A DNA stretch of 64,000 nt from Octopus vulgaris (taxonomy: Eukaryota): the NCBI GenBank assembly GCA_951406725.2, contig OX597820.1, positions 28,768,001-28,832,000 on the forward strand, written 5' to 3'. Below, one piece after another: positions 1 to 56,410 of the stretch. Every line of letters begins with the position of its first letter. Position 1 is the stretch's first letter. Under the pieces are notes generated by a model that was not told the DNA's origin, searched no databases, and was given only the letters and a program-made list of their open reading frames with translations. The position numbers and the translations under genes are program-made.

Positions 1-919
1 TTATCAATGGGCGGAATTAGCTAAGTTGAAATATGTTTATCGTGTACTAGCAGTATCGCCCGGCGTTGCTCGGGTTTGTAAGGGAAATAACTATATAAGC
101 ATTTTTAGAGATGTAAAGTATAATAGCCATCTCAATATGGCTAACCACAAAGGGGGTGTTACTGTAGCTTTTTACGTTCTGAGATTTAATAATACATTTT
201 TAGAGAGTTACTTCCCTTATATATGCCAAAAATGCATTAAAAATGGGAAAAAGTTATGGTAATTTTTTTTTAAATCGTAGACTCATCGTAGACGCGGGCT
301 AATACCCAGAAGGGCTCGATATGAATCACGACTATAAGATACCCGCTTTTGGTTAAACTGCACCGCAAAATGTGAGAGTAGTTAGGAATCTAAATCGTAG
401 GAGACAGACACCACACAACCTCACTTTTATATGTATAGATATCAACTGCTAAAAGGCAAATGCACTGCAGTTACAATGGGGAATAATCTCTCTCATGGTG
501 AAAAGGTGTAAAAACACCCGGTAGGTTCAATGTTGCCACCTATTAGGAACCTCAGACATCAATGTTAGCGCTAATAATTCAATGTTTTCCTTTGATCGGC
601 GATCTACAGGCGGAAATCAGTCAGCGTGTTGACTGAATAATACTGTAGCTTTATAAGTCTGTAGCTTTATAAGTCTGTAGCTTTATAAGTCCGTTTAGAG
701 TTGTATCTCTTAGGTACATTTCATCAAAAATAGCCAAGAAGCTCGAAACATCGATGTCTGAGATTCCTAACAGATGGCGTCACTGAACGGACCGGTTGTC
801 TTTACACCTTTCACCATAAGAGACATTTATTATCTATGGTAACTCTAGTGTATTTGCCATTTAGCAGTTGAAATACATGACAAACATATTTCAACTTAGC
901 TAATTCTGCTCATACATAA
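1..919. mobile_element. Old foldback/MITE-like element with ~170-bp imperfect inverted arms; left arm split by a Helitron and possibly extending beyond the window start
   Basis: 1-46 joined to 440-566 aligns with the reverse complement of 747-919 (e.g. GAATTAGCTAAGTTGAAATATGTTT / AAACATATTTCAACTTAGCTAATTC). The spacer holds three tandem copies of CTGTAGCTTTATAAGT (~583-630). Confidence 0.75.
47..439 (-). mobile_element. Non-autonomous Helitron (393 bp)
   Basis: The minus strand starts TC (TCTATACATATAAAAG) and ends with a GC-rich hairpin CCCGAGCAACGCCGGG followed by CTAG. It is inserted between A and T with no TSD, and removing it restores the host inverted-repeat arm. Confidence 0.85.
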
Positions 920-5879: not shown

Positions 5880-6165
5880 TGATTACACAGACGAAGGTAC
5901 TTGTTGATCCTGTCAACGCAACAGTCTGCTCAAGAGATTAGCGTGCATGTCGATGAGCATTTGACAGAGACGCATGCCCTTAAAGTAGCTCTTTTGGAGT
6001 TTCAGCGTGACACAATATGACAAGAGTGACTCTTTGAAACGGGTGTACTATTCATTTTTGTCAACTGAGCACAGTGAAATAAAGTGTCTTGCTTGAAGAC
6101 ACAGCGCGCCCTCGGGAATCGAACCATGTGCTGAATACTCAAACCACTAAGCCGCGTGCCTTCAT
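5880..6165 (-). mobile_element. Diverged SINE related to family B (tail 1)
   Basis: Matches the B1 tail (TTCAGCGTGACACA, TTAGCGTGCA) and has a tRNA-like head (GGGAATCGAACC...AACCACTAAGCC on +). Confidence 0.55.
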
Positions 6166-12028: not shown

Positions 12029-12201
12029 TATTATTATTTATTTTCTGGTTCTTGCTTCTTGCGTTTAGTGTTCATAACCCGCTAAGGTTAATTTTGCTAT
12101 TCGTGTATCCGGGGTAGGCAAAAGAAAATATCAACGAAGTACAGGGAATCGATTTTATCTTCTAATTCTAATTCACTTCCTCTCACTATTGTTCGTTTTG
12201 T

Positions 12202-12582
12202 AAGGCGGAGAGATGGTAGAAACTTTAGCACACCGGACGAAATGCTTAGCGGTATTCCGTCTGCTGTTACGTTCTGAGTTCAAATTCCGCCGAGGTCGAC
12301 TTTGCCTTTCATCCTTTCGGGGTCGATTAAATAAGTACCAGTTACGCACTGGGGTCGATATAATCGACTTAATCCCTTTGTCTGTCCTTGTTTGTCCTCT
12401 TTGTGTTTAGCCCCTTCTGGGTAGTAAAGAAATAGGTATTCCGTCTGTCTTTACGTCCTGAGTTCAAATTCCACCGAGGTCAACTTTACCATTCATCCTT
12501 TCGGGGTTCGATAAATTAAGTACCATTTCCGTATTTGGAGTCCATCTAATATCGTACCTTGTGCCTGGAGTAGAAAAGAATA
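12202..12582 (+). mobile_element. SINE-A two-unit array (tail-1 unit plus tail-2 unit)
   Basis: The 184-bp units both start GGTATTCCGTCTG (12251 and 12435). Confidence 0.9.
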
Positions 12583-12629
12583 TTTTTGGTTTTGTGCCTA
12601 AATCGGAAATCATTATTTCTCGAGCGTCA

Positions 12630-16740: not shown

Positions 16741-17274
16741 GGGAGTGGCTGTGTGGTAAGTAGCTTGCTCATGAACCACATGGTTCCGTGTTCAGTCCTA
16801 CTGCGTGGTACCTTGGGCAAGTGTCTTCTACTATAGCCTCGGGCCGACCAAAGTCTTGTGAGAGGATTTGGTAGACGGAAACTGAAAGAAGCCCGTCTTA
16901 TACGTATATGTATGTATGTATGTATGTGTGTATGTATATGCTTGCGTGTCTGTGTTTTTCCCCCTAGCATCACTTGACAACCGATGCTAGTGTGTATATA
17001 TATGTTTGTGTGTCTGTGTTTGTCCCCCCAACATCGCTTGACAACCGATGCTGGTGTGTATATATATGTTTGTGTGTCTGTGTTTGTCCCCCCAACATCA
17101 CTTGACAACCGATGCTGGTTTGTTTATGTCCCCGTAACTTAGCGGTTCGGCAAAAGAGACCGATAGAATAAGTACTAGGCTTACAAAGAATAAGTCCTGG
17201 AGTCGATTTTCTCGACTAAAGGCGGTGCTCCAGCATAGCCACAGTAAAATGACTGAAACAAGTAAAAGAGTAAA
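16741..17274 (+). mobile_element. SINE-C full-length copy with an internal ~62-bp triplication
   Basis: tRNA-like head TGGCTGTGTGGTAAG...GTTCAGTCC, CORE-like CCTTGGGCAAGT, three copies of CTTGACAACCGATGCT and tail GGTGCTCCAGCAT...GACTGAAACAAGTAAAAGAG. Confidence 0.9.
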
Positions 17275-17953: not shown

Positions 17954-18262
17954 GTATACGTACATAAACAGACACACACACACACAAGAACATATACACG
18001 CATATGCATTCGTGTGTTTGTGTTTGCCCTCATCCCACTGCTTGACAGCCGGTGTTGGTTTGTGTAGGTTCCCGTAAATTAACGATTCAGTAAAATGTCC
18101 GATTGAATAGATACCAAATCCGAAAGGAAACAGATCAGCGATGATATGTTCGACAAATACTTAAGGCTGCACTCTAGAATCACTGCAGTCTCCTCAAAAT
18201 GTCAGGCCTCGTGCCTATAGAACAAAAAATATGATTATTATTAAATTGTTAGATGAATTTTT

Positions 18263-18850
18263 AAAGCAGGAAGCTGACAGAATCGTAAGCACGCCGGATA
18301 AAAAATGCTTACCAGTATTTCGTCTGCCGCTACGTTCTGAGTTCAAATTCCGCCGAGGTCGACTTTACTTTTCATCCTTACGAGGTCGATTAAAGAAGTA
18401 CCAGTTACGCACTGGGGTCGATATAATCGACTTAATCCGTTTGTCTGTCCTTGTTTGTCCTTTCTATGTTTAGCCCCTTGTGGGTAGTAAGGAAATAGGT
18501 ATTTCCTCTGCCGCTACGTTCTGAATTCAAATTCCGCCGAGGTCGACTTTGCTTTCATCCTTTCGGGGTCGATAAATTAAGTTCAAATTATGCACTGGGG
18601 TCAGTGTCATCGACTTAATCCGTTTGTCTGTCCTTGTTTGTCCTTTCTGTGTTTAGCTCCTTGTGGGTAGTAAAGAAATAGGTATTTCCTCTGCCATTAT
18701 TTTATAAGTTCAAATTCCACCGATGTTTACTTTTCCTTTTACCCTTTCGGGGTCGATAAATTAAGTACCAGTATAACACTGGGGTCAATGTAATCGACTA
18801 CTCCCCACGACAATTAAACTTTAGGCCTTGTGCCTATAATAGAAAAGGGT
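18263..18850 (+). mobile_element. SINE-A three-unit array (tail 1, tail 1, tail 2)
   Basis: Period is ~183 bp; units 2 and 3 both start GGTATTTCCTCTGCC (18498 and 18681). Confidence 0.9.
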
Positions 18851-19351
18851 TATTTGCTATATAAATCAACTGGGTGTTTTGAAAGTCCTGTTCGTAGTTA
18901 AAAATATAATATTTATACCAGGTACAATATTAATCTCTTAAACACTTTTCAAAAATATATTTCGAAATTAAAATATCAACTGAACATTGCTCATCTATGA
19001 GGAAAAGGAATACTGATGCTATCCGAAATATTTCCATTTTATAAGCCTTCGTATACTTTGGTCATTTCAATGAAAACTTAACGCAGTGGGACTCTATTCC
19101 ATGCAAATATCAGAAAAGTGGGTACATCCTGGATGGGACAGAATAAGAGCGTAGATATTAAACCACTTAATTGTCCAATTAAGTAATCTGCAGGATTAAG
19201 TAATATGCTATTTGGAAAAATATGATGATTATCAGGAAAGATGTTTGTAAAACTGTATTCGGTAATAAGGAATGTTGGAAATTCTGTTCTGGTATAATCA
19301 TATGTTCAGCTGCCCTCTACAGGCATATATGAACACATATGTGCATATATG

Positions 19352-32256: not shown

Positions 32257-32542
32257 CTTTCTTTATTGGTCACACAGGGCTGGACACGGAGGGGACAATT
32301 ACAAATGTAGAGCTTTTCTTTTCGGAGGTGGAAAAAAAGAAAAAAAGGAAACAAATGTAAAAATTCGATCAAAAGGGATCGGAAGAAAAAAGAGCGATCA
32401 AAAGGGATCGTGTATCACAGAAAAGAAAAAAAAATTTTTCAAAGTAACAAACAAGAATAGGTTCAACCGTGGACAGAAAAGCCTACAGAAAAGACCATGG
32501 TAACCTCAGACAGGGAGGAAAAAAAACACATGAGAGCAAAGT

Positions 32543-32645: not shown

Positions 32646-33904
32646 GTTACTGGTAATATGAAACCTAGTAGACCCTATGATATGGTGGCATTGTTGATAA
32701 ATAAACCGGCACCCTCACTAGGCTTGCTAGGTGAAGGGGATTGCTAGAAAGTTCACAAGACTAAAAGTAAGCCCTGTCGAAAGAACGGATGAGCCTAGTG
32801 TAGGTTCAATTATTATCTCGCAATACCTCGGGCCTCCATAAATGCTGAGTTAGTGTTCTTCGCGCCGGAAGACCACTGTTAAAGTATGTCACTAGGACCC
32901 GCTTGAAATCAAAGCTACCTCTGCTCCGATAATCAGCGGTCATTTGGTCAGCAAATCATCTGCTAGGTCGACAATCGATGGTAACGTGAGCTGGTACGGA
33001 TCACACTAAGTCCAAAGGGTGGCCGAGGATCTCATATGAACAACGGTTTCCTGACAGGGTCATTTACTTGCAATCTGCCATGAAACATGTCTGGGTTGTT
33101 TGCTTCTTTCTTTTACTTTTTTTTTTGTTTTTGTTCAGTAGAGCTGGAAACTACTACTTCATTTGGAAACTAGCGGAGTCGATGAAGAGAAGGGCATCCT
33201 GCTGTAAAAAAAGCTCTGTCTCAACATACTTCCGATTGAGCCGTGCAAGCATAGAAAAGCAGACATAAAAACAATAAGGGGGGGGAGAAAAAGGATGTGG
33301 AGGAGGAGGTAGAGGAGGTATAGTGGGTAGACGAGGAGGAGGTGGAAGGGGGAGGAAGACGAGGAGGAGAACCACAAAATGTAAGTAGAAATCCTTCGAT
33401 TTTAGGGAAAATTGTGTAAACGTTTGGCTTCAAAATTATTTTTAGAAACACTTGTTTAGAGAAATACTGCCCGTCAAATCATCACCAGAAACAATAGTGT
33501 TTTGCCTGTAGTCAGCTCTCCCTAAGCAAACATACGAAGCTATTATAACTAGCTTTGTTTCACAGTTCCTACTATGAATGATTGTTATAGTAAATTTTTT
33601 AAAAAATAGACTGATAAACCTAGTAATGTCTACATCAATAAAATTCAACTGGCAAGTTCACAGATTTGCACAGTTTCATGTTTCCGACGTTTAAAAGAGA
33701 GCACATCATAGTAAAGACAATATGAATTAGCCTTTTAGATATTTTCCTTCCGAAAAAAAAAAATGGCTCTGTTTTACAGTTTAAACCGGAACAACTGTTA
33801 TAATTGTCTCTATTTTATAGTTTAACACTTTAGCATTTAAGCTGGTCATAACTGGCCTAAATATTCTACCCTGTTCAAACCCAGTCAGATTTGGTTTGTC
33901 ACAC

Positions 33905-34505
33905 CTATTTCTTTACTACCCACAAGGTGCTAAACACAGAGAGGATAAACAAGGACAGACAAACGGAGTAATTCGATTACATAGACCCCAGTGCATAACT
34001 GGTACGTAATTTATCGACCCCGAAAGGATGAAAGGCAAAGTCGACCTCGGCGGAATTTGAACTCAGAACGTAACGGCAAACAAAATATCTATTTCTTTAC
34101 TACCCACAAGGGGCTAAACACAGAAGGAACAAATAAGGACAGACAAACGGATTAAGTCGATTACACCGACCCCAGTGCAAAACTGGTACTTAATTTATCG
34201 ACCCCGAAAGGATGAAAGGCAAAGTCGACTTCGGGGGAATTTGAACTCAGAACGTAACGGCAAACAAAATACCTATTTCTTTACTACCCATGAGGGGCTA
34301 AACACAGAGAGGACAAACAAGGACAGACAAACGGATTAAGTCGATTATATCGACCCCAGTGCGTAACTGGTACTTAATTTATCGACCCCGAAAGGATGAA
34401 AGGCAAAGTCGACTTCGAGGGAATTTGAACTCAGAACGTAACGGCAAACAAAATACCGCTAAGCATTTCGACCGGCGTGCTATCATACCTGCCAGCTCGC
34501 CGCCT
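33905..34505 (-). mobile_element. SINE-A three-unit array (all tail 1)
   Basis: Period is ~184 bp and all units share the variant TATTTTGTTTGCC. TTTGTCACACCTATT is directly repeated on both flanks (~33895 and ~34510). Confidence 0.9.
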
Positions 34506-35077
34506 TTGTTTTGTCACACCTATTCCCATTGAAAATCCGAACCATAAACACTATACTTCAGCATCGAATGACAACTACGGCTGAGGTGTCAGTTTTCATG
34601 ATGGACGTTTTGAACTTGTTGGTCGAAACCGGTTCAATGCAATCAGAACGAATGCAATTGCTAGTTGAGTCGGTGGTGGTAAAAGAGAGAACGAAATTTA
34701 ATCTAAGATATGTATTTCTTCAACTGAGAACAATACCGCAATATGGCGGTTTCTCTATTTCCGGGCCAACGTCAAAGGAACCAGGTGGCAGTGTTAATTT
34801 TAAACCAGCAAACATATTACAAGATATTTTAACCTTTATAAATACTTAACATTAATGAAATAATTTTCCACATCTTTTCCATTGATTTCTATGCATTTGT
34901 TTGTTCGGTACGTTTTTGCTATTATTTCCAAGTTTTTTGGTAGAAAGTTTATTTGTATCATAACGCTTATATTTTCATTGTCTTTCTATATATCTTTCCT
35001 TACATATATGCATGTATGCGTATCCAGGTGTGTGAGTACATATTATATACATGTATATGTACGTATATATGTATATA

Positions 35078-40764: not shown

Positions 40765-41161
40765 GAAGGGCTACACACAGAGGGGACAAACAAGTACAGA
40801 CAAACTTATTAAGTAGATTATATCCACTCCAGTACTCAACTGGTACTTATTTAATCGACCCCGAAAGGATGAAAGGCAATGTCGACCTCGGCGGAATTTG
40901 AAATCAGGACGTAACGGCAGTCGAAATACCTATTTCTTTACTACTCACAAGGGGCTAAACACAGAGAGGACAAACAAGGACAGACAAACGGATTGAGTCG
41001 ATTATATCGACCCCAGTGCGTAACTGGTACTTATTTAATCGACCCCGAAAGGATGAGAGGCAAAGTCCACCTCGGCGGAATTTGAACTCAAGACGTAGCG
41101 GCAGCCGAAATACCGCTAAGCATTTCGCCTAGCGTGCTAACGATTCTGCCACCTCGCCGCC
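40765..41161 (-). mobile_element. SINE-A two-unit array
   Basis: Minus-strand junction GTAAAGAAATA|GGTATTTCGACTGCC near 40930. Confidence 0.9.
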
Positions 41162-41179
41162 AAATAACAATAATAATAA

Positions 41180-41580
41180 TATTCCTTTCTACTAAAGGTA
41201 CAAGGCCTGAAATTTTGAGGGACGGGGCCAGTCGATTAGATCGAGCCCAGTACGCGACTGGTACTTAATTTATCGACCCCCAAAGGATGAAAGGCAAAGT
41301 TGACCTCAGCAGAATTTGAACTCAAAACGTAAATACAGACGAAATACCTATTTCTTTACTACCCACAAGGTGTTAAATACAGAGAGGACAAACAAGGACA
41401 GACAAACGGATGAAGTCGATTGTATCGACTCCAGTTCGTAACTGGTACTTATTTCACCGATCCCCAAAGGATGAAAGGCAAAGTCAACCTCGGCGGAATT
41501 TGAACTTAGAACGTAGCGGTAGACGAAATACGGCTACGCATTTCGCCCGGCGTGCTAACGTTTCTGCCAGCTCGCCGCCT
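41180..41580 (-). mobile_element. SINE-A two-unit array (tail-1 unit plus tail-2 unit)
   Basis: Minus-strand junction GTAAAGAAATA|GGTATTTCGTCTG near 41348. Confidence 0.9.
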
Positions 41581-43345: not shown

Positions 43346-44673
43346 CAGTAGTTTTATTTTTATAGCGTGCTTTCACTTCACTACCGAGCGCAGCTCTGTG
43401 TGCCTTGGGTATGTGCTGTGATTTGTTGTGATGCTCTGATGGTTATTGTATGGAAAGTGTTCTGCGTAGGATGTGTGCAGTGCCTAGTAGTGCAATTTTC
43501 TGTATGTTATATGTGTTTGTAAGTCCTGGTGTTTTTGTTATGTATTTGTCTGAATATTTTTTTATCATGCCTAATGCACCTACTATGATAGGAATTGTTT
43601 CTGTTTTCAGATTCCACATTCTAGTTACCTCTATTTCCAGGTCTTTGTATTTTGAGAGTTTCTCCATTTCTTTTAGAGACACGTTGTCATCTGCCGGTAT
43701 TGATACATCAATTAGAAAGCATTTTTTTCTTCATGATCTCTGACAACTATATCTGGTCTGTTGGCCTTAAGTTCTCTATCTGTGTGTATCGGCATATCCC
43801 AGAGTATGGTTGCTTTCTCGTTTTCTGTGACCTTTTCTGGTGTGTGCCTATACCATTTTTTTCTGTTGTTATTCCATAATGTTGGCATAGCTTCCAATGT
43901 ATGTAGGTTCCAACTCTGTCATGTCTGTGAATATATTCCTTCTTAGCCAGGACTGGGCAGCTAGAGATAATATGATTTATTGTTTCTTGTCCATCTCCAC
44001 ATATTCTGCAGTTACTTGTAATATTTCTTTTCATTACATGTTTTTGGTAATTTCTGGTGGGGAGGCTTTGGTCTTGTGCTGCAATTAAAAATCCCTCTGT
44101 TTCTGCTTTGAGTCCTGAGCTTCTCAACCATTGCTGGGATTTTTCTTTGTCTATTTCTTTTGCGTTTAGTTTAGTGCAGTATTTACCATGAAGGGGCTTT
44201 TCTTGCCATCGTTTTATCATGGTTCGTTGCTGTTCTATTTTTAGTTTGGATTTCATTTGTTTTATAGCTTTTGTTGTTTCTTCATCATCTTCTTCTTCTT
44301 CTTCGTGTTTATTAGGTGGTATGATTTCTTGTTTGTATTTGTCAGATTCCTTAAATACTGAGAACAGTTTTTTGTTTTGCTCGTGTTTTGCTGCTATCTG
44401 GATCAGTTTTCCTTCCTTCTGAAGTAGGTATTTTTGCAGTCCTATGGTGGTTATTTTATAGTAGTTTTCCAGCTGTATAAGGCCTCTACCACCTTCTATA
44501 CGTTGTATATATAGTCTTTCTATGTCAGATTTTGGGTGATGCATCCTAGATCCTGTCAGTATTTTTCTTGTTTTCCTATCTATTTTGGACAGTTCATTTC
44601 GTGTCCAGTTAAGGATATTGTAGCTGTAACTTATAACTGGGACAGCTAAAGTGTTGATACCTATTATCTTGTT
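43346..44673 (-). mobile_element. 5'-truncated R4/Dong-clade non-LTR retrotransposon (thumb region, CCHC knuckle, restriction-like endonuclease)
   Basis: INTLAVPVISY, RLYIQRIEGGRGL, AAQDQSLPTRNY, CRICGDGQETINHIISSC, RHD, RPDIV...IDVSIP...EKLSKY (PD..D..K endonuclease) and PIIVGALG. The only disruptions seen are two frameshifts at homopolymer runs. (AAT)n flanks both ends. Confidence 0.92.
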
Positions 44674-44691
44674 TATTATTATTATTATTAT

Positions 44692-44815
<124 letters not shown>

Positions 44816-45253
44816 ATCAGGACTCACACCATTAGCCACAAAAATAATCTCTAATTTGAGCCTACTCTAAGCTACTAAGAATGTGTGTGGCAACTTGAAG
44901 ATCCATCCACCACTACGTTGTTATCCTCATTCCGTAAACGGTGGCTCTTAACGGGTGGAGAGCTGAACCATCTTGGGATACAGAAGATTCGCAATCTAGA
45001 CTAGGGTCTGAAAGTTTACCATACCATAGTGGGTTACACTATGGTTCCTCTGCTTTGTGGCAGAAGTAGGAAGAAAGAGTGAGAGAAAGTTGTGGTTAAA
45101 GAATACAGCAGGGTTCACCCCTCCCCCCGCCGGGGCCTCGTGGAGCTTAGGTGTTTTGCTCAATAAACACTCATAGTTCCCGGTCTGGGAATCTAAACAG
45201 CGTTCTTACGACCGCGAGTCCGCTGGCCTAACCACTGGGCCATTGCGCCTCCA
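44816..45253 (-). mobile_element. SINE-B head and core joined to a distinct ~250-bp tail (tail 3) ending at (AAT)n
   Basis: 45066-45253 matches SINE-B. The downstream sequence matches neither tail 1 nor tail 2 and contains hairpin ACCATAGTG-GGTTA-CACTATGGT. Confidence 0.6.
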
Positions 45254-51670: not shown

Positions 51671-53277
51671 CGCAACTACAGCTAGTAGATGTAGTTCTCT
51701 ATTGTGGGATAGTAATTATCTCAGCGCACATGATTTACGTACATTTCCTCAAACGTGAGTTGAATGTATTATTTTGATTCATTCAACTTTTTAAATGTTA
51801 GCTCAACTGAGATTGATCGTTTCATAGTCTAATATGTTTTGTTTCAAATACTAAAATGTTTCGTTTCAAATCCTGCAGGGTAGAGAGAAAGTGACGTACA
51901 AAACGCCATGAAGTATTTAGCTGCGCCCCTTAATGTTCTTAGTTCAAATCCAATCAGGATCGACTTTACCTTTCGCAGAATGAAGATAAAATATAGCACG
52001 GCTCAAGTGATGTATCAATATTATCAGGTAGATTCATTCTGCTCAATGTGTGCTCTCGTGCCAATGTTAAAAATTAATAACTAGAAAAAGAAAAAGAAGA
52101 ATTGGATTCAACTCGGATCTTTCTCTTTTGACCTACATATTTAAAAAATAATTTCGGGAATTTCAACCAATCAATGACGTGTAGTCAAAAAGTAAAGATC
52201 CTTTAACTCAAACATTATATTATATAAAAACTGACCATGATGTTTCGTCAGTGTGTAGGTAATCTAAAAGTTCTGTCAGGCAACGCCCGTGCATTTATGT
52301 GTACAGTCATGACTCTGTTGTTAAGGTGGTCGCAGTGATATCAAACCTGCAGATCCAGGTTCTGTCTCACTCCACAGCAACATACACAGGGGTCAATCTT
52401 CTATAATAAACTCACATCGAACACAAACCATCTAACTTCACATTGTAGACGGAAGCTAAGTGGAAACTTTTCGAGTGAACAGCATCTGTTCTTCGATGGT
52501 AAGCATAATCTGTCACTTGGTTTTTGCGTATCTTAGTATTTAACTTCCTTTCTGACTTCTACCAGTATCAAATACTATTGAATAAAATTGTGCACACTAA
52601 TCTACCACCTCTAAATAACATCGCAAGTTGAAGTACACGTCTTTAATAAGGCCGGTGAGAAGCGTATGTTGTTCCCTTGAATGGTCAATGGGAAGATGAT
52701 CACATCGCTCCGATATGTAGTCTTTAACACATGTTTATGAAGACATTTGTCTCTCAGAAGAAACCACAGCATCATATATTTCAATGGTGTTTACTCGTCA
52801 GCTATGACACAAAGATGGCTATTTCAATAGTATGATGTTGCAAAGGCGACGAGCTGGCAGACACGTTAGCACGCCGGGTGAAACGCCTAGCGGTATTTCG
52901 TCTGCCGCTACGTTCTGAGTTCAAATTTTGCCGAGGTCGACTTTCCCTTTCATCCTTTGGAGTCAATAAATTAAGTACCAGTTACGCACTGGGGTCGATG
53001 TAATCGACTTAATCCGTTTGTCTGTCCTTCTTTGTCCCCTCTGTGTTTAGCCTCTTGTGGGTAATAAAGAAATAGAAATAGGTATTTCGTCTGCCGCTAC
53101 GTTCTGAGTTCCAATTCTGCCGAGGTCGACTTTGCCTTTCATCCTTTCGGGGTCGATAAATTAAGTACCAGTTACGCACTGGGGTCGATGTAATCGACTT
53201 AATCCGTTTGTCTGTCCTTGTTTGTCCCCTCTGTGTTTAGCCCCTTGTGGGTAGTAAAGAAATGGGTATTTCATCCG

Positions 53278-54074
53278 CCTGTAGCTTTATCTCCGGCCAC
53301 GAGTTAAGATCGTTTTGCACTTTTCACTTGAAAAGGAAAGTGTGGCTGGAGAAGAGATGCCTGTCGGAGAATGTGTTAAAAAAAAGATGGAAGCATGTTG
53401 CACGAGTGCTGAGCGTGCAAGAAACCATGTGAATAGGCTATAGAAGAAAAGCAAGATATGAAAGAAGAACCAGCGATAGATCGGGGCTTATGGGATCGGA
53501 GCAAGGGTGATCATCACTACATTTGTATCATATTTGTATTGTGTGGAGGCGCAATGGCCCAGTGGTTAGGGCAGCGGACTCGCGGTCGTAGGATCGCGGT
53601 TTCGATTCCCAGACCGGGCGTTGTGAGTGTTTATTGAGCGAAAACACCTAAAGCTCCACGAGGCTCCGGCAGGGGTGGTGGTGATCCCTGCTGTACTCTT
53701 TCACCACAACTTTCTCTCACTCTTACTTCCTGCTTCTGTTGTACCTGTATTTCAAAGGGCCGGCCTTGTCACTCTCTGTGTCACGCTGAATATCCCCGAG
53801 AACTACGTTATGGGTACACGTGTCTGTGGAGTGCTCAGCCACTTACATGTTAATTTCACGAGCAGGCTGTTCCGTTGATTCGAATCAACCGGAACCCTCG
53901 TCGTCGTAACCGACGGAGTGCTTCCATCCATTTGTATTGTGTATTTCATTCGATTCTTATATATTTTATATACTTTTTATTTCCATATTTATGTAATATC
54001 ATAAGGCGTTACTGATCCCAATCAGTTGTTTTGTCCCATTCTTTGTATAGACCCCTGTGGGTAATAAAGAAATT
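53278..54074 (+). mobile_element. L1/Tx1-like LINE 3' end inserted into the SINE-A head with a 13-bp TSD
   Basis: ORF end SFISGHELRSFCTFHLKRKVWLEKRCLSENVLKKRWKHVARVLSVQETM* and tail AGACCCCTGTGGGTAATAAAGAAAT. GGTATTTCATCCG flanks it at 53265-53277 and 54075-54087. Clade assignment is inferred. Confidence 0.65.
53545..53929 (+). mobile_element. SINE-B1 full-length (tRNA-Arg-like head)
   Basis: Head GGAGGCGCAATGGCCCAGTGGTTAGGGCAGCGGACTCGCGGTC...GGTTTCGATTCCC; TSD ATTTGTATTGTGT at 53532-53544 and 53930-53942. Confidence 0.93.
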
Positions 54075-54986
54075 GGTATTTCATCCGTCTTTATGTTCTG
54101 AGTTCAAATTCCGCCGAGGTTGACTTTGCCTTTCATCCTTTCTGGGTCCATAAATTAAGTATCAGTTGCGTACTAGATTCGATCAAATCAGCTGGCACCC
54201 TCCCCCAAAATTTCAAGCTTTGTGCCTAGAGTAGGAAAAGAATATTATGATGTTTCAATCGCACCAATATTTCTCTTGTCTTTCCGGTTGTTGATATTAC
54301 CTGTTGGTTACCACTTCTGACACAAAGTTATCACGCAATTTTGTTTGTTGTTCTTGTTTTGTTTTTTGTTTTGTTTTGTAAGGTGGGGTTGCTTTTTGTT
54401 TATGGCGTGTTTTTCTTAGGTGGAGATGGCTGGCAGGAAGCAAGAATGAACTCACAACGTACAAAACCCAATCTTTTGTCACTTCCTTCCATTCCATTGT
54501 CTGTTCCCGGTACTTTATTTAATGATTTCAAATAAAAGAAAAACAATACATTCCTCAGTGGCATTTGGACTCAGAGGATTGGAAAAAATAATGTTTTATG
54601 TGTTCTGACGTTCAAAAGACTCTGTCGCAGTTCGCCACTTGAGATTAAACAAAACAAAAAGGCCATACATATAAAATGACTATTTTGGTTCTCGTTATAA
54701 TATGCGAAAGTTACTTTGAGCAATATCCTTCATAAAAAATCTATTTTGTTTTCCAAGACTTTCACATCGTATGAGAAAATGATAAATAGATATTGATTTA
54801 CCATAGTTATTTCATTAATAGATGTATTAGAGATGGCGGCGGCTGACATTTAATTTGACAACATTAGTTATTCTGGACTTAGAATAGCCTCGGATTTAGG
54901 CTCAAGAACAGCAATTATAAGAAGGCCGATACTATCGATCCCAGTACTTTACCTTATCTACACCGGAGCAATTCAGAACGTAAATA

Positions 54987-55369: not shown

Positions 55370-55765
55370 TTCGAACAAGGACAGAAATTTTGAGGTGAGG
55401 GGACAAATCTATAACATCGATCCCAATAGTTCACTGGAATTTTATCTTTGACCCCCAGTAGGGATTAAAAGGCAACGTTATCATCGATGAAATTTGAGCT
55501 CAGAATTTAAAGATTCGTAAGAAATGCCGTGAAGAATTTATTTTCTCTTTCACGGTTTTCCAGCTCACCATCTTATTCTGGACATATAGTTTTCTCTTCT
55601 ACGGGAAATATGCTTGAATTCTGAGGTGAGACACAGCTGGTTGATTACTTTGACCCTCATTGCTCAAATAATATTTATGTTATCAACACCCGAAAGACTG
55701 AAAGGAAAAGTTGACTTCGATGGAATTTGAACTTAGAATGTAAAGAACCGGAAGAAATACCATAC
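55370..55765 (-). mobile_element. Two old SINE-A-like copies
   Basis: Degenerate GACCCC..AAAGGCAA...GAAATTTGAGCTCAGAA and CCCGAAAGACTGAAAGGAAAAGTTGAC...GAATTTGAACTTAGAA. Confidence 0.65.
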
Positions 55766-55821
55766 TATTGATCATTTATCTAAAAATACATCCAGTTCAT
55801 CGTTTAATACTGAACTTAAAA

Positions 55822-56410
55822 TTATTTCTTTATTGCCCACAGGGGGCTAAAATAGAGGGGCAAACAAGGACAGACAAACGGATTAAGGTCGATTACATCG
55901 ACCCCGGTGCATAACAGGTACTTATTCAATCGACCCCGAAAAGATGAAAGCAAAGTCGACTGCGGGGGAATTTGAACTCAGAACATAGCGGCAGACGAAA
56001 TACCTACTTCTCTACTACCCACAAGGGGCTAAACACAGAAGGGACAAACAAGGACAGACAAACGGATTAAGTCGATTATATACGTAACTGGTACTTATTT
56101 AATCGACCCCGAAAGGATGAAAGGCAAAGTTGACCTCGGCGGAATTTGAACTCAGAACGTAGTGGCAGACGAGATACCTATTTCTTTACTACCCACAAGG
56201 GGCTAAACACAGAGAGGACAAAGAAGGACAGACAAACAGATTAAGTCGAGTACATCGACCCCAGTGCGTAACTGGTACTCATTTAATCGAACCCGAAAGG
56301 ATGAAAGGCAAAATCGACCTCGGCGGAATTTGAACTCAGAACGTAGCGGCAGACGAAATACCGCTAGATATTTCGCCCGGCGTGCTAACGAATCTGCCAG
56401 ATCGCCGCCC
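55822..56410 (-). mobile_element. SINE-A three-unit array (all tail 1)
   Basis: Minus-strand junctions GAAATA|GGTATCTCGTCTG (~56178) and GAAGTA|GGTATTTCGTCTG (~56004). Confidence 0.9.

Follow-up and report, generated by a model that had tools for sequence, protein, structure and literature searches.

Insertion into the head of a SINE-like repeat as the probable origin of short tandem arrays in Octopus vulgaris

Several short tandem arrays in a stretch of Octopus vulgaris DNA (64,000 nucleotides, hereafter the window) have a junction of about 13 bp between neighbouring units, and individual loci repeat junction variants of their own. The question is whether such variants were copied from a local target during insertion or spread between units by unequal crossing-over. 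The original prediction named four variants as repeated at their own loci, and all are present, each of the 13-mers being restricted to a single locus. GGTATTCCGTCTG occurs at 12251 and 12435 only, with identity running 13 bp; GGTATTTCCTCTG occurs at 18498 and 18681 only (15 bp); and GGTATTTCATCCG occurs at 53265 and 54075 only (13 bp). The variant expected three times at 33905-34505, TATTTTGTTTGCC, is indeed present three times, but on the minus strand (starts 34455, 34271, and 34087), and is confined to the locus of array H. The variants are thus private as 13-mers, but the two alleles at 53265/54075 are each found at two other loci. All counts and tests refer to this one 64-kb window, which is animal intergenic or intronic DNA (35.5% G+C, microsatellite-rich with 139 Tandem Repeats Finder rows, and devoid of long genes).

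The 13-mer is more than a mere junction. It is internal to a SINE-like repeat, ~47 nt from the 5' end. By a coordinate search, this single family of repeats occupies 14 loci, distributed over both strands, and amounts to ~7.8% of the window. In each element, ~230 bp in total, a head of 46–47 nt leads into the 13-mer; a body of ~100 nt, common to both families, follows, and the element closes with either of two tails. Family Y has a fixed tail, and its unit, counted from the start of the 13-mer, measures 184 bp (n = 14 units in the window). The tail of family X (n = 11) is of another kind, with ATT repeats usually behind it, and the alleles of X differ from those of Y at unit positions 14, 16, and 17. 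Seven loci are single-head arrays of 2–3 SINE units and the other seven are stand-alone X-type copies, giving 25 SINE units within 64 kb. No stand-alone Y monomer is found in the window, in which three arrays are Y-ended. By the SINEBase definition, SINEs are short (<1 kb) and interspersed, and the present family is ~230 bp long and scattered over 14 loci on both strands. We take these repeats to resemble octopus SINEs.

An A-box-like motif is located near nt 10 of the head and a B-box-like motif in the body (near 12277-12288 in array D), the latter a near match by eye that misses the strict B pattern. The 13-mer sits between the two. SINEBase assigns a tRNA origin at ≥60% tRNA identity over 60 nt together with A and B boxes, according to the accessible part of its description (PMC3531059). 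For the head, ARAGORN reports 0 tRNA genes and Rfam no tRNA match; over the whole window, all of the Rfam matches listed (150 of 248) are microsatellite matches below threshold. Identity with MetaSINE or the bivalve CORE-SINE, which are marked by a conserved central domain, was considered and dropped, as no likeness to the accessible supplement sequences of PMC4824008 was seen by eye. Octopus genomes are reported to contain L1-Tx1 LINEs and abundant SINEs (accessible parts of PMC13282606 and PMC8967140), and octopus SINEs are mentioned in the accessible parts of PMC4824008, PMC4758252, and PMC3531059 with no target feature in their own head.

At all 12 internal junctions, the end of a tail is joined to the first base of the 13-mer. 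The check proposed originally, a comparison of allele sharing in the early bases with sharing over the remainder, was made for all arrays of the window, and sharing is concentrated in bases 1–13. Non-majority alleles of the downstream unit recur upstream in 8/14 cases in bases 1–13 versus 11/102 beyond (p = 2e-4, with seven dimorphic positions set aside; the alleles are not independent of one another, and array H provides four of the eight). A non-majority allele in bases 1–13 is common to five of the 12 junction pairs, in four of the seven arrays; 100,000 shuffles of the 26 site copies, with all 12 pairs counted and misses included, give null means of 1.0 and 1.0 (p = 0.001 and 0.004). Six strictly private alleles are common to neighbours, compared with 0.08 expected. 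Over the 10 unit–unit pairs, rare common alleles per 13-bp bin number 6, 1, 2, 0, 0, 1, 0, and 0, and sharing beyond base 15 is at background. The idea that the local target was copied while the unit body came from elsewhere is therefore borne out in 5/12 pairs, but the other 7/12 have no common variant in bases 1–13; these seven, and the origin of 4/8 common alleles in array H, count against an insertion model. SINE-derived satellites form long arrays homogenised per locus, whereas here there are 2–3 units per locus and neighbouring unit bodies are 5.4–14.1% apart, as against 11.1 ± 3.4% for units of different loci. In a plain listing, all four X units that were hit start with GGTATT, versus one of the seven stand-alone X-type copies.

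In array D (plus strand, site at 12251), a nearly unmutated unit has come between an old head and an old tail, which together lie within an outer duplication of their own. The outer direct repeat (12187..12201 and 12581..12595; 13/15 match, p = 0.005 versus random windows) is the duplication from insertion of the old host element. The head of this host (12204..12250) contains the A-box-like motif and the 5' arm and loop of a hairpin, and 4/41 of its sites are non-majority. The first copy of the inner duplication (12251..12263) provides the 3' arm of the head hairpin; it is identical to the second copy (12435..12447) and unique to the locus. Between the copies lies the young Y unit (12264..12434), composed of a body with the B-box-like motif and a LINE-like tail, with 0/88 body sites non-majority. 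The displaced remainder of the family X host follows (12448..12580), with 10/88 body sites different, the family alleles at 14 and 16, and a tail as in solo copies. The two units had been described as having different tails, and they do, one being family Y and the other family X. The identity between 12251 and 12435 had been said to end after 13 bp; the length is right, but the base change that ends it is the X/Y family difference (positions 14, 16, and 17) and not a locus-private one.

The other arrays vary in composition. Array F (18266..18853, plus strand) is a head followed by Y, Y, and X, with site copies at 18314, 18498, and 18681, the last two having a common private allele and 15-bp identity; no outer direct repeat is found around it (p = 0.30). 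Array H (33906..34504, minus strand) is a head followed by three Y units, with site copies at 34457, 34273, and 34089 that have two common private alleles. Its outer repeats (upstream 34505..34524 and downstream 33890..33909, minus strand) match at 19/20 positions (p = 0.0007); the downstream copy runs 16 bp past the tail, starts with GGT like the internal site, and has 4 bp within the tail. The first two units of array H are identical for 39 bp and have one difference in their first 93 bp, and so the expected copied stretch of 13–15 bp is seen at D, F, and L but is exceeded here. The array H variant makes a run of four T inside each of its three site copies. A run of four T is a possible Pol III stop, so this would be a poor source allele, which favours a local origin. 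Array I (40769..41161, minus strand) is a head followed by Y and Y with the last tail truncated, and no outer direct repeat is found around it. Its site copies, 41114 and 40930, differ at base 10; both are non-majority there (41105 and 40921, minus strand), each with a different base, possibly reflecting one common change and then a second. Array J (41175..41579, minus strand) is a head followed by Y and X, with site copies at 41532 and 41348 that have no common variant. Array I begins within the ATT tail of array J (41160-41180, minus strand). Array M (55823..56409, minus strand) is a head followed by three Y units, with site copies at 56362, 56178, and 56004 that have no common variant and a possible outer repeat (14/18, p = 0.006). 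At 55761, separated from array M by 61 bp of unique sequence (55762-55822, minus strand), an old X-type copy without a head begins precisely with the 13-mer; either its head has decayed or it represents a further insert.

The outer repeats and the ages of the units bear on how the arrays grew. Comparison of the sequence before the head with that after the last tail gives p < 0.02 at 7/9 loci (uncorrected). Outer direct repeats around the head and the last tail are found at D, L, H, M, and J (5/7 arrays, p < 0.01), with a 16/18 match of low complexity at J. Among solo X-type copies, the repeat matches at 13/14 positions at solo A and more weakly at solo B. Since these repeats enclose both head and last tail, each locus was entered either by one element that was later split or by a whole array. 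Divergence from the majority is 27/287 (9.4%) for heads, 28/615 (4.6%) for first units, and 59/615 (9.6%) for last units (head versus first p = 0.007; first versus last p = 0.0008); the test is weaker when CpG sites are left out (p = 0.03 and 0.06), and the order is reversed at locus J. The four terminal X units are 15–25% apart from each other. This age order and the terminal X divergence argue against whole-array masters and duplicated units, and fit insertion beside the head. The duplications are of similar length, 13, 13, up to 15, and 16 bp.

In composite L (plus strand), the site has received something other than a SINE unit. The outer direct repeat (52826..52843 and 54241..54258; 16/18 match, p = 0.0017) encloses a head with two Y units (52845..53264; site copies 52892 and 53081), two identical 13-bp copies (53265..53277 and 54075..54087), and, after the second, the displaced remainder of the old X host (54088..54240). 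The copies at 53265 and 54075 had been read as repeats bounding a unit; instead they flank 797 bp of non-SINE sequence (53278..54074), reduced to 399 bp on removal of an unrelated nested repeat (53545..53929), which has its own exact 13-bp duplication (53532-53544 and 53930-53942). The 399-bp fragment opens with the terminal ~50 codons of a reading frame (53280-53432), followed by a 3' UTR and a Y-like tail (54026-54073). The frame matches nine unnamed database proteins at 44–53% identity, mostly near their C-termini (11 matches in total, two spurious-looking ones left out), and a profile made from those nine finds solely the insert frame in the window (E = 2e-21, a partly circular result). 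The insert tail agrees with the Y tail in 40/48 columns, above 1000/1000 shuffles. Searches with the frame yielded 0 Pfam families, ESM Atlas scores <0.8 or no match, a best PDB hit of E = 0.48, 0 longer relatives among 5705 and 4353 candidates, and, as near-length relatives, just four of the same unnamed proteins. There is no second copy of the coding fragment in the window, and this is the single LINE insertion at the site there. Of 14 complete tails of Y or LINE type, 12 end at the site, one of these belonging to the LINE fragment.

From its sequence, the insert is most likely the partner LINE of the SINE, 5'-truncated, because a truncated coding 3' end, a SINE-like tail, and a flanking duplication occur together. 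The motif in the frame looks to us like the end of a Tx1-clade ORF2, and the partner probably belongs to this clade. Sharing of tails between SINEs and LINEs is known (accessible part of PMC3747384). Two things escaped the original prediction: the repeat serves as its own target, by way of its head, and a probable partner element lies within the window.

Some related sequences were noted elsewhere. A related tail (32258-32304, minus strand) is like the Y tail in 36/47 columns, lies behind a T-rich stretch, and runs straight into a (TATC)n microsatellite; a sister LINE family with microsatellites as its target is the probable source of this 3' end. The frameshifted 3' part of another LINE (43443-44823, minus strand; zf-RVT E = 6e-6, just under the Pfam cut-off), presumably Dong/R4-like, lies between ATT-type microsatellites. 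The repeat nested in the insert is one of nine copies of a second dispersed repeat of ~390 bp in the window (73–93% identity), the others being at 5890, 16122, 45061, 45602, 46400, 50344, 55102, and 62069. At 53069-53080 (plus strand), the Y tail shows its final six bases twice ahead of the junction, the pattern to be expected if reverse transcription slips as it begins.

We consider it likely that the arrays are built by target-primed insertion at a specific site, the 5' ends being joined seamlessly through homology, and we have good confidence that the 13-bp duplications are target-site duplications, at least in the Y-into-X and LINE-into-X cases. The site position, the fixed junction, the allele sharing, the outer and inner direct repeats, the age order, and the common tail are all observed directly. 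The 13-bp site would be carried in the head of the older family X, whose stand-alone copies in the window serve as paralogous counterparts of an empty site with a single copy of the repeat. A site-specific LINE, probably of the Tx1 clade, would nick at the first base of the site and prime reverse transcription there, and a second-strand cut ~13–16 bp downstream would duplicate the site. The younger family Y would combine the X head and body with the LINE 3' tail, so that the LINE machinery could bring Y to the same site. The Y cDNA would then anneal to homologous host DNA upstream of the cut. With the seamless 5' joint so formed, all inserts would look truncated at one base, each adding exactly one 184-bp unit. 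Because the site would be regenerated per event and is present in Y, new copies would stack beside the head, in the order old head, youngest unit, older units, and old tail. The upstream copy of the site would usually be derived from the host, as the common private alleles suggest, but may be overwritten by the cDNA, for example at 53081/53265, where neither allele of the neighbouring copy is present upstream. For Y into X at D, the family alleles would bound the joint to bases 7–13. Where Y enters Y, homology spans the whole unit, so the copied stretch may lengthen, as possibly in the first two units of array H (34457/34273). Array H itself may have started off target, with a Y element that entered unique DNA and made a 16-bp duplication beginning with the same three bases. 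Here we infer the identity and clade of the LINE, the specificity of its endonuclease, the annealed 5' joint, and transcription by Pol III.

Preference for insertion over unequal crossing-over, as originally proposed, is supported by the outer duplications, by the young unit sandwiched between old parts, and by the LINE-like fragment between 13-mers. It holds for Y into X and LINE into X; the young–young pairs 34457/34273 and 52892/53081 may involve exchange or conversion. We therefore weighed a mixed history in which insertion builds the first dimer and later units arise by unequal crossing-over, slippage, or gene conversion, whether the partners are units or duplicated sites. These two pairs have the lowest neighbour distances (6.5% and 5.4%, respectively), and the seven Y–Y pairs are concordant for family alleles (19 versus 7.3 expected, p = 0.005) and have rare alleles at positions 16–50 in common beyond expectation (3 versus 0.34, p = 0.011). 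Exchange or conversion has also been proposed for similar SINE arrays of bivalves (PMC11481361) and SINE satellites of squamates (PMC10702118), as far as the accessible parts of these papers go. However, no strictly private allele in bases 16–184 is common to any of the seven young–young pairs, and 18314 and 18498 differ at 21 positions, family-diagnostic ones included. Exchange within a dimer predicts that units 1 and 2 have their 3' part in common, whereas in array H it is the 5' part, with 0/8 downstream alleles recurring past base 93. The LINE fragment and the tail-to-site junction would also be left unexplained. The mixed history is thus a minority reading, unlikely on balance though with some claim on the young–young pairs.

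Whole arrays might instead be read-through copies of a few dimeric or multimeric masters, with the variants being subfamily alleles of the masters. Read-through would be possible, as four consecutive T are absent from the majority Y unit; whole arrays lie inside outer duplications, one variant is present in all three H units, and Y monomers do not stand alone. Against this, ages differ within one array (0/88 versus 10/88 at D), terminal X units are as far apart as noted above, each variant 13-mer belongs to a single locus, and the origin of the junction is shifted to the master but left unexplained. We regard such masters as improbable. About as doubtful is the proposal that the structure of the head hairpin, rather than the sequence, fixes the junction and that a non-specific LINE does the remainder, be it by stalling of reverse transcriptase at the hairpin base, through a DNA cruciform, or by RNA cleavage and religation at the loop. 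Of five folded heads, two (12203 and 56410) form a long hairpin whose 3' arm coincides exactly with the 13-mer, which begins right where the loop ends. Against the structural reading, the other three heads fold otherwise, and the z-scores are −0.7 to −2.5. In addition, the LINE fragment, which lacks a hairpin of this kind, entered at the same site and left the same duplication, and the outer site of array H begins with the same three bases. Chance or recurrent CpG mutation is by far the least probable source of the variant sharing. Bases 8–9 are a CpG and hold three of the six distinct common alleles; the permutation of the 26 real copies, however, preserves mutation hot spots and still gives p = 0.001–0.004, and the excess of strictly private alleles over expectation is as large as stated above.

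Site-specific insertion into the repeat's own head can be compared with known systems. Zepp of Chlorella is an autonomous LINE, not a SINE, that inserts into its own copies. The octopus element behaves like a site-specific SINE/LINE pair of Tx1 type, with membership of that clade putative. The closest known system appears to be SINEU-3 with Tx1-Mar in crocodilians, where a SINE and a Tx1-type partner likewise use one target inside a repeat and where tandem SINEU-3 copies sandwich a ~16-bp duplication read as a sign of sequential insertions (accessible part of PMC4494074). In that system a Mariner DNA transposon serves as target and the units are complete, whereas here the target would be the SINE's own head, so that the units are in-register partial copies behind one head. 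Tx1 and R1 are given as the two apurinic-endonuclease clades with known target specificity in the accessible part of PMC4640811. In R1 tandems of Drosophila 28S rDNA, new copies enter the upstream 14-bp duplication and the target is regenerated, as here (accessible parts of PMC2718515 and 10.1101/158386), but R1 is autonomous, targets a host gene, and has no homology with its target. R2 with a 5' rRNA leader provides a precedent for the 5' joint that we propose, its cDNA annealing to the upstream target to give a seamless joint (accessible part of PMC11331408); R2 differs in endonuclease class and target, and uses a short borrowed leader in place of a whole homologous head. Arrays in Scapharca broughtonii (PMC11481361) and squamates (PMC10702118) have, as here, one complete head, truncated units, a complete end, and an outer duplication, but their middle units either are truncated at both ends or closely resemble one another, and the accessible parts of these papers attribute them chiefly to unequal recombination; here the repeated units retain a complete LINE-type tail and resemble one another no more closely than copies at separate loci do. 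In the open-licence literature, we found neither this element or its arrays nor any SINE reported to target its own head. By this comparison, the class of mechanism is known and the self-target appears to be new.

If these arrays do arise by insertion, Y may act as a homing SINE, using a LINE endonuclease aimed at the promoter region common with X and converting old loci copy by copy. We advance this tentatively, our belief stopping a little short of an even balance. On this proposal, the old A box would come to lie before a new B box, body, and LINE-type tail, making a complete Y gene, the old X remainder would lose its promoter, and the parasite would hide in sequence that was already junk. 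Arrays of nucleosome length (184 bp) would be seeded without recombination, and the same route might account for the bivalve and reptile SINE arrays currently ascribed to unequal crossing-over. Targeted insertion would thereby offer a testable path from dispersed SINEs to satellite-like arrays, with three signatures that can be scored across a genome: sharing confined to the first 13 bp, old–young–old order, and an outer duplication. The sequence would imply an apparently undescribed sequence-specific LINE endonuclease with a 13–16-bp stagger and a SINE head as target. For annotation, such loci risk being mis-filed as dimeric SINE subfamilies or satellites, with their parts mis-dated. As the family makes up 7.8% of the window, the effect on genome composition may be large.

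ATT or CAT microsatellites harbour X-type elements and several of the heads. The X-type tail also closes a different repeat just upstream of array F (18190-18235, plus strand), and hence at least two SINE-like families have that tail. In addition, the window contains a perfect 16-bp repeat in three copies (643-691, plus strand) and a 64-bp repeat in three copies at 92% (16926-17127, plus strand).
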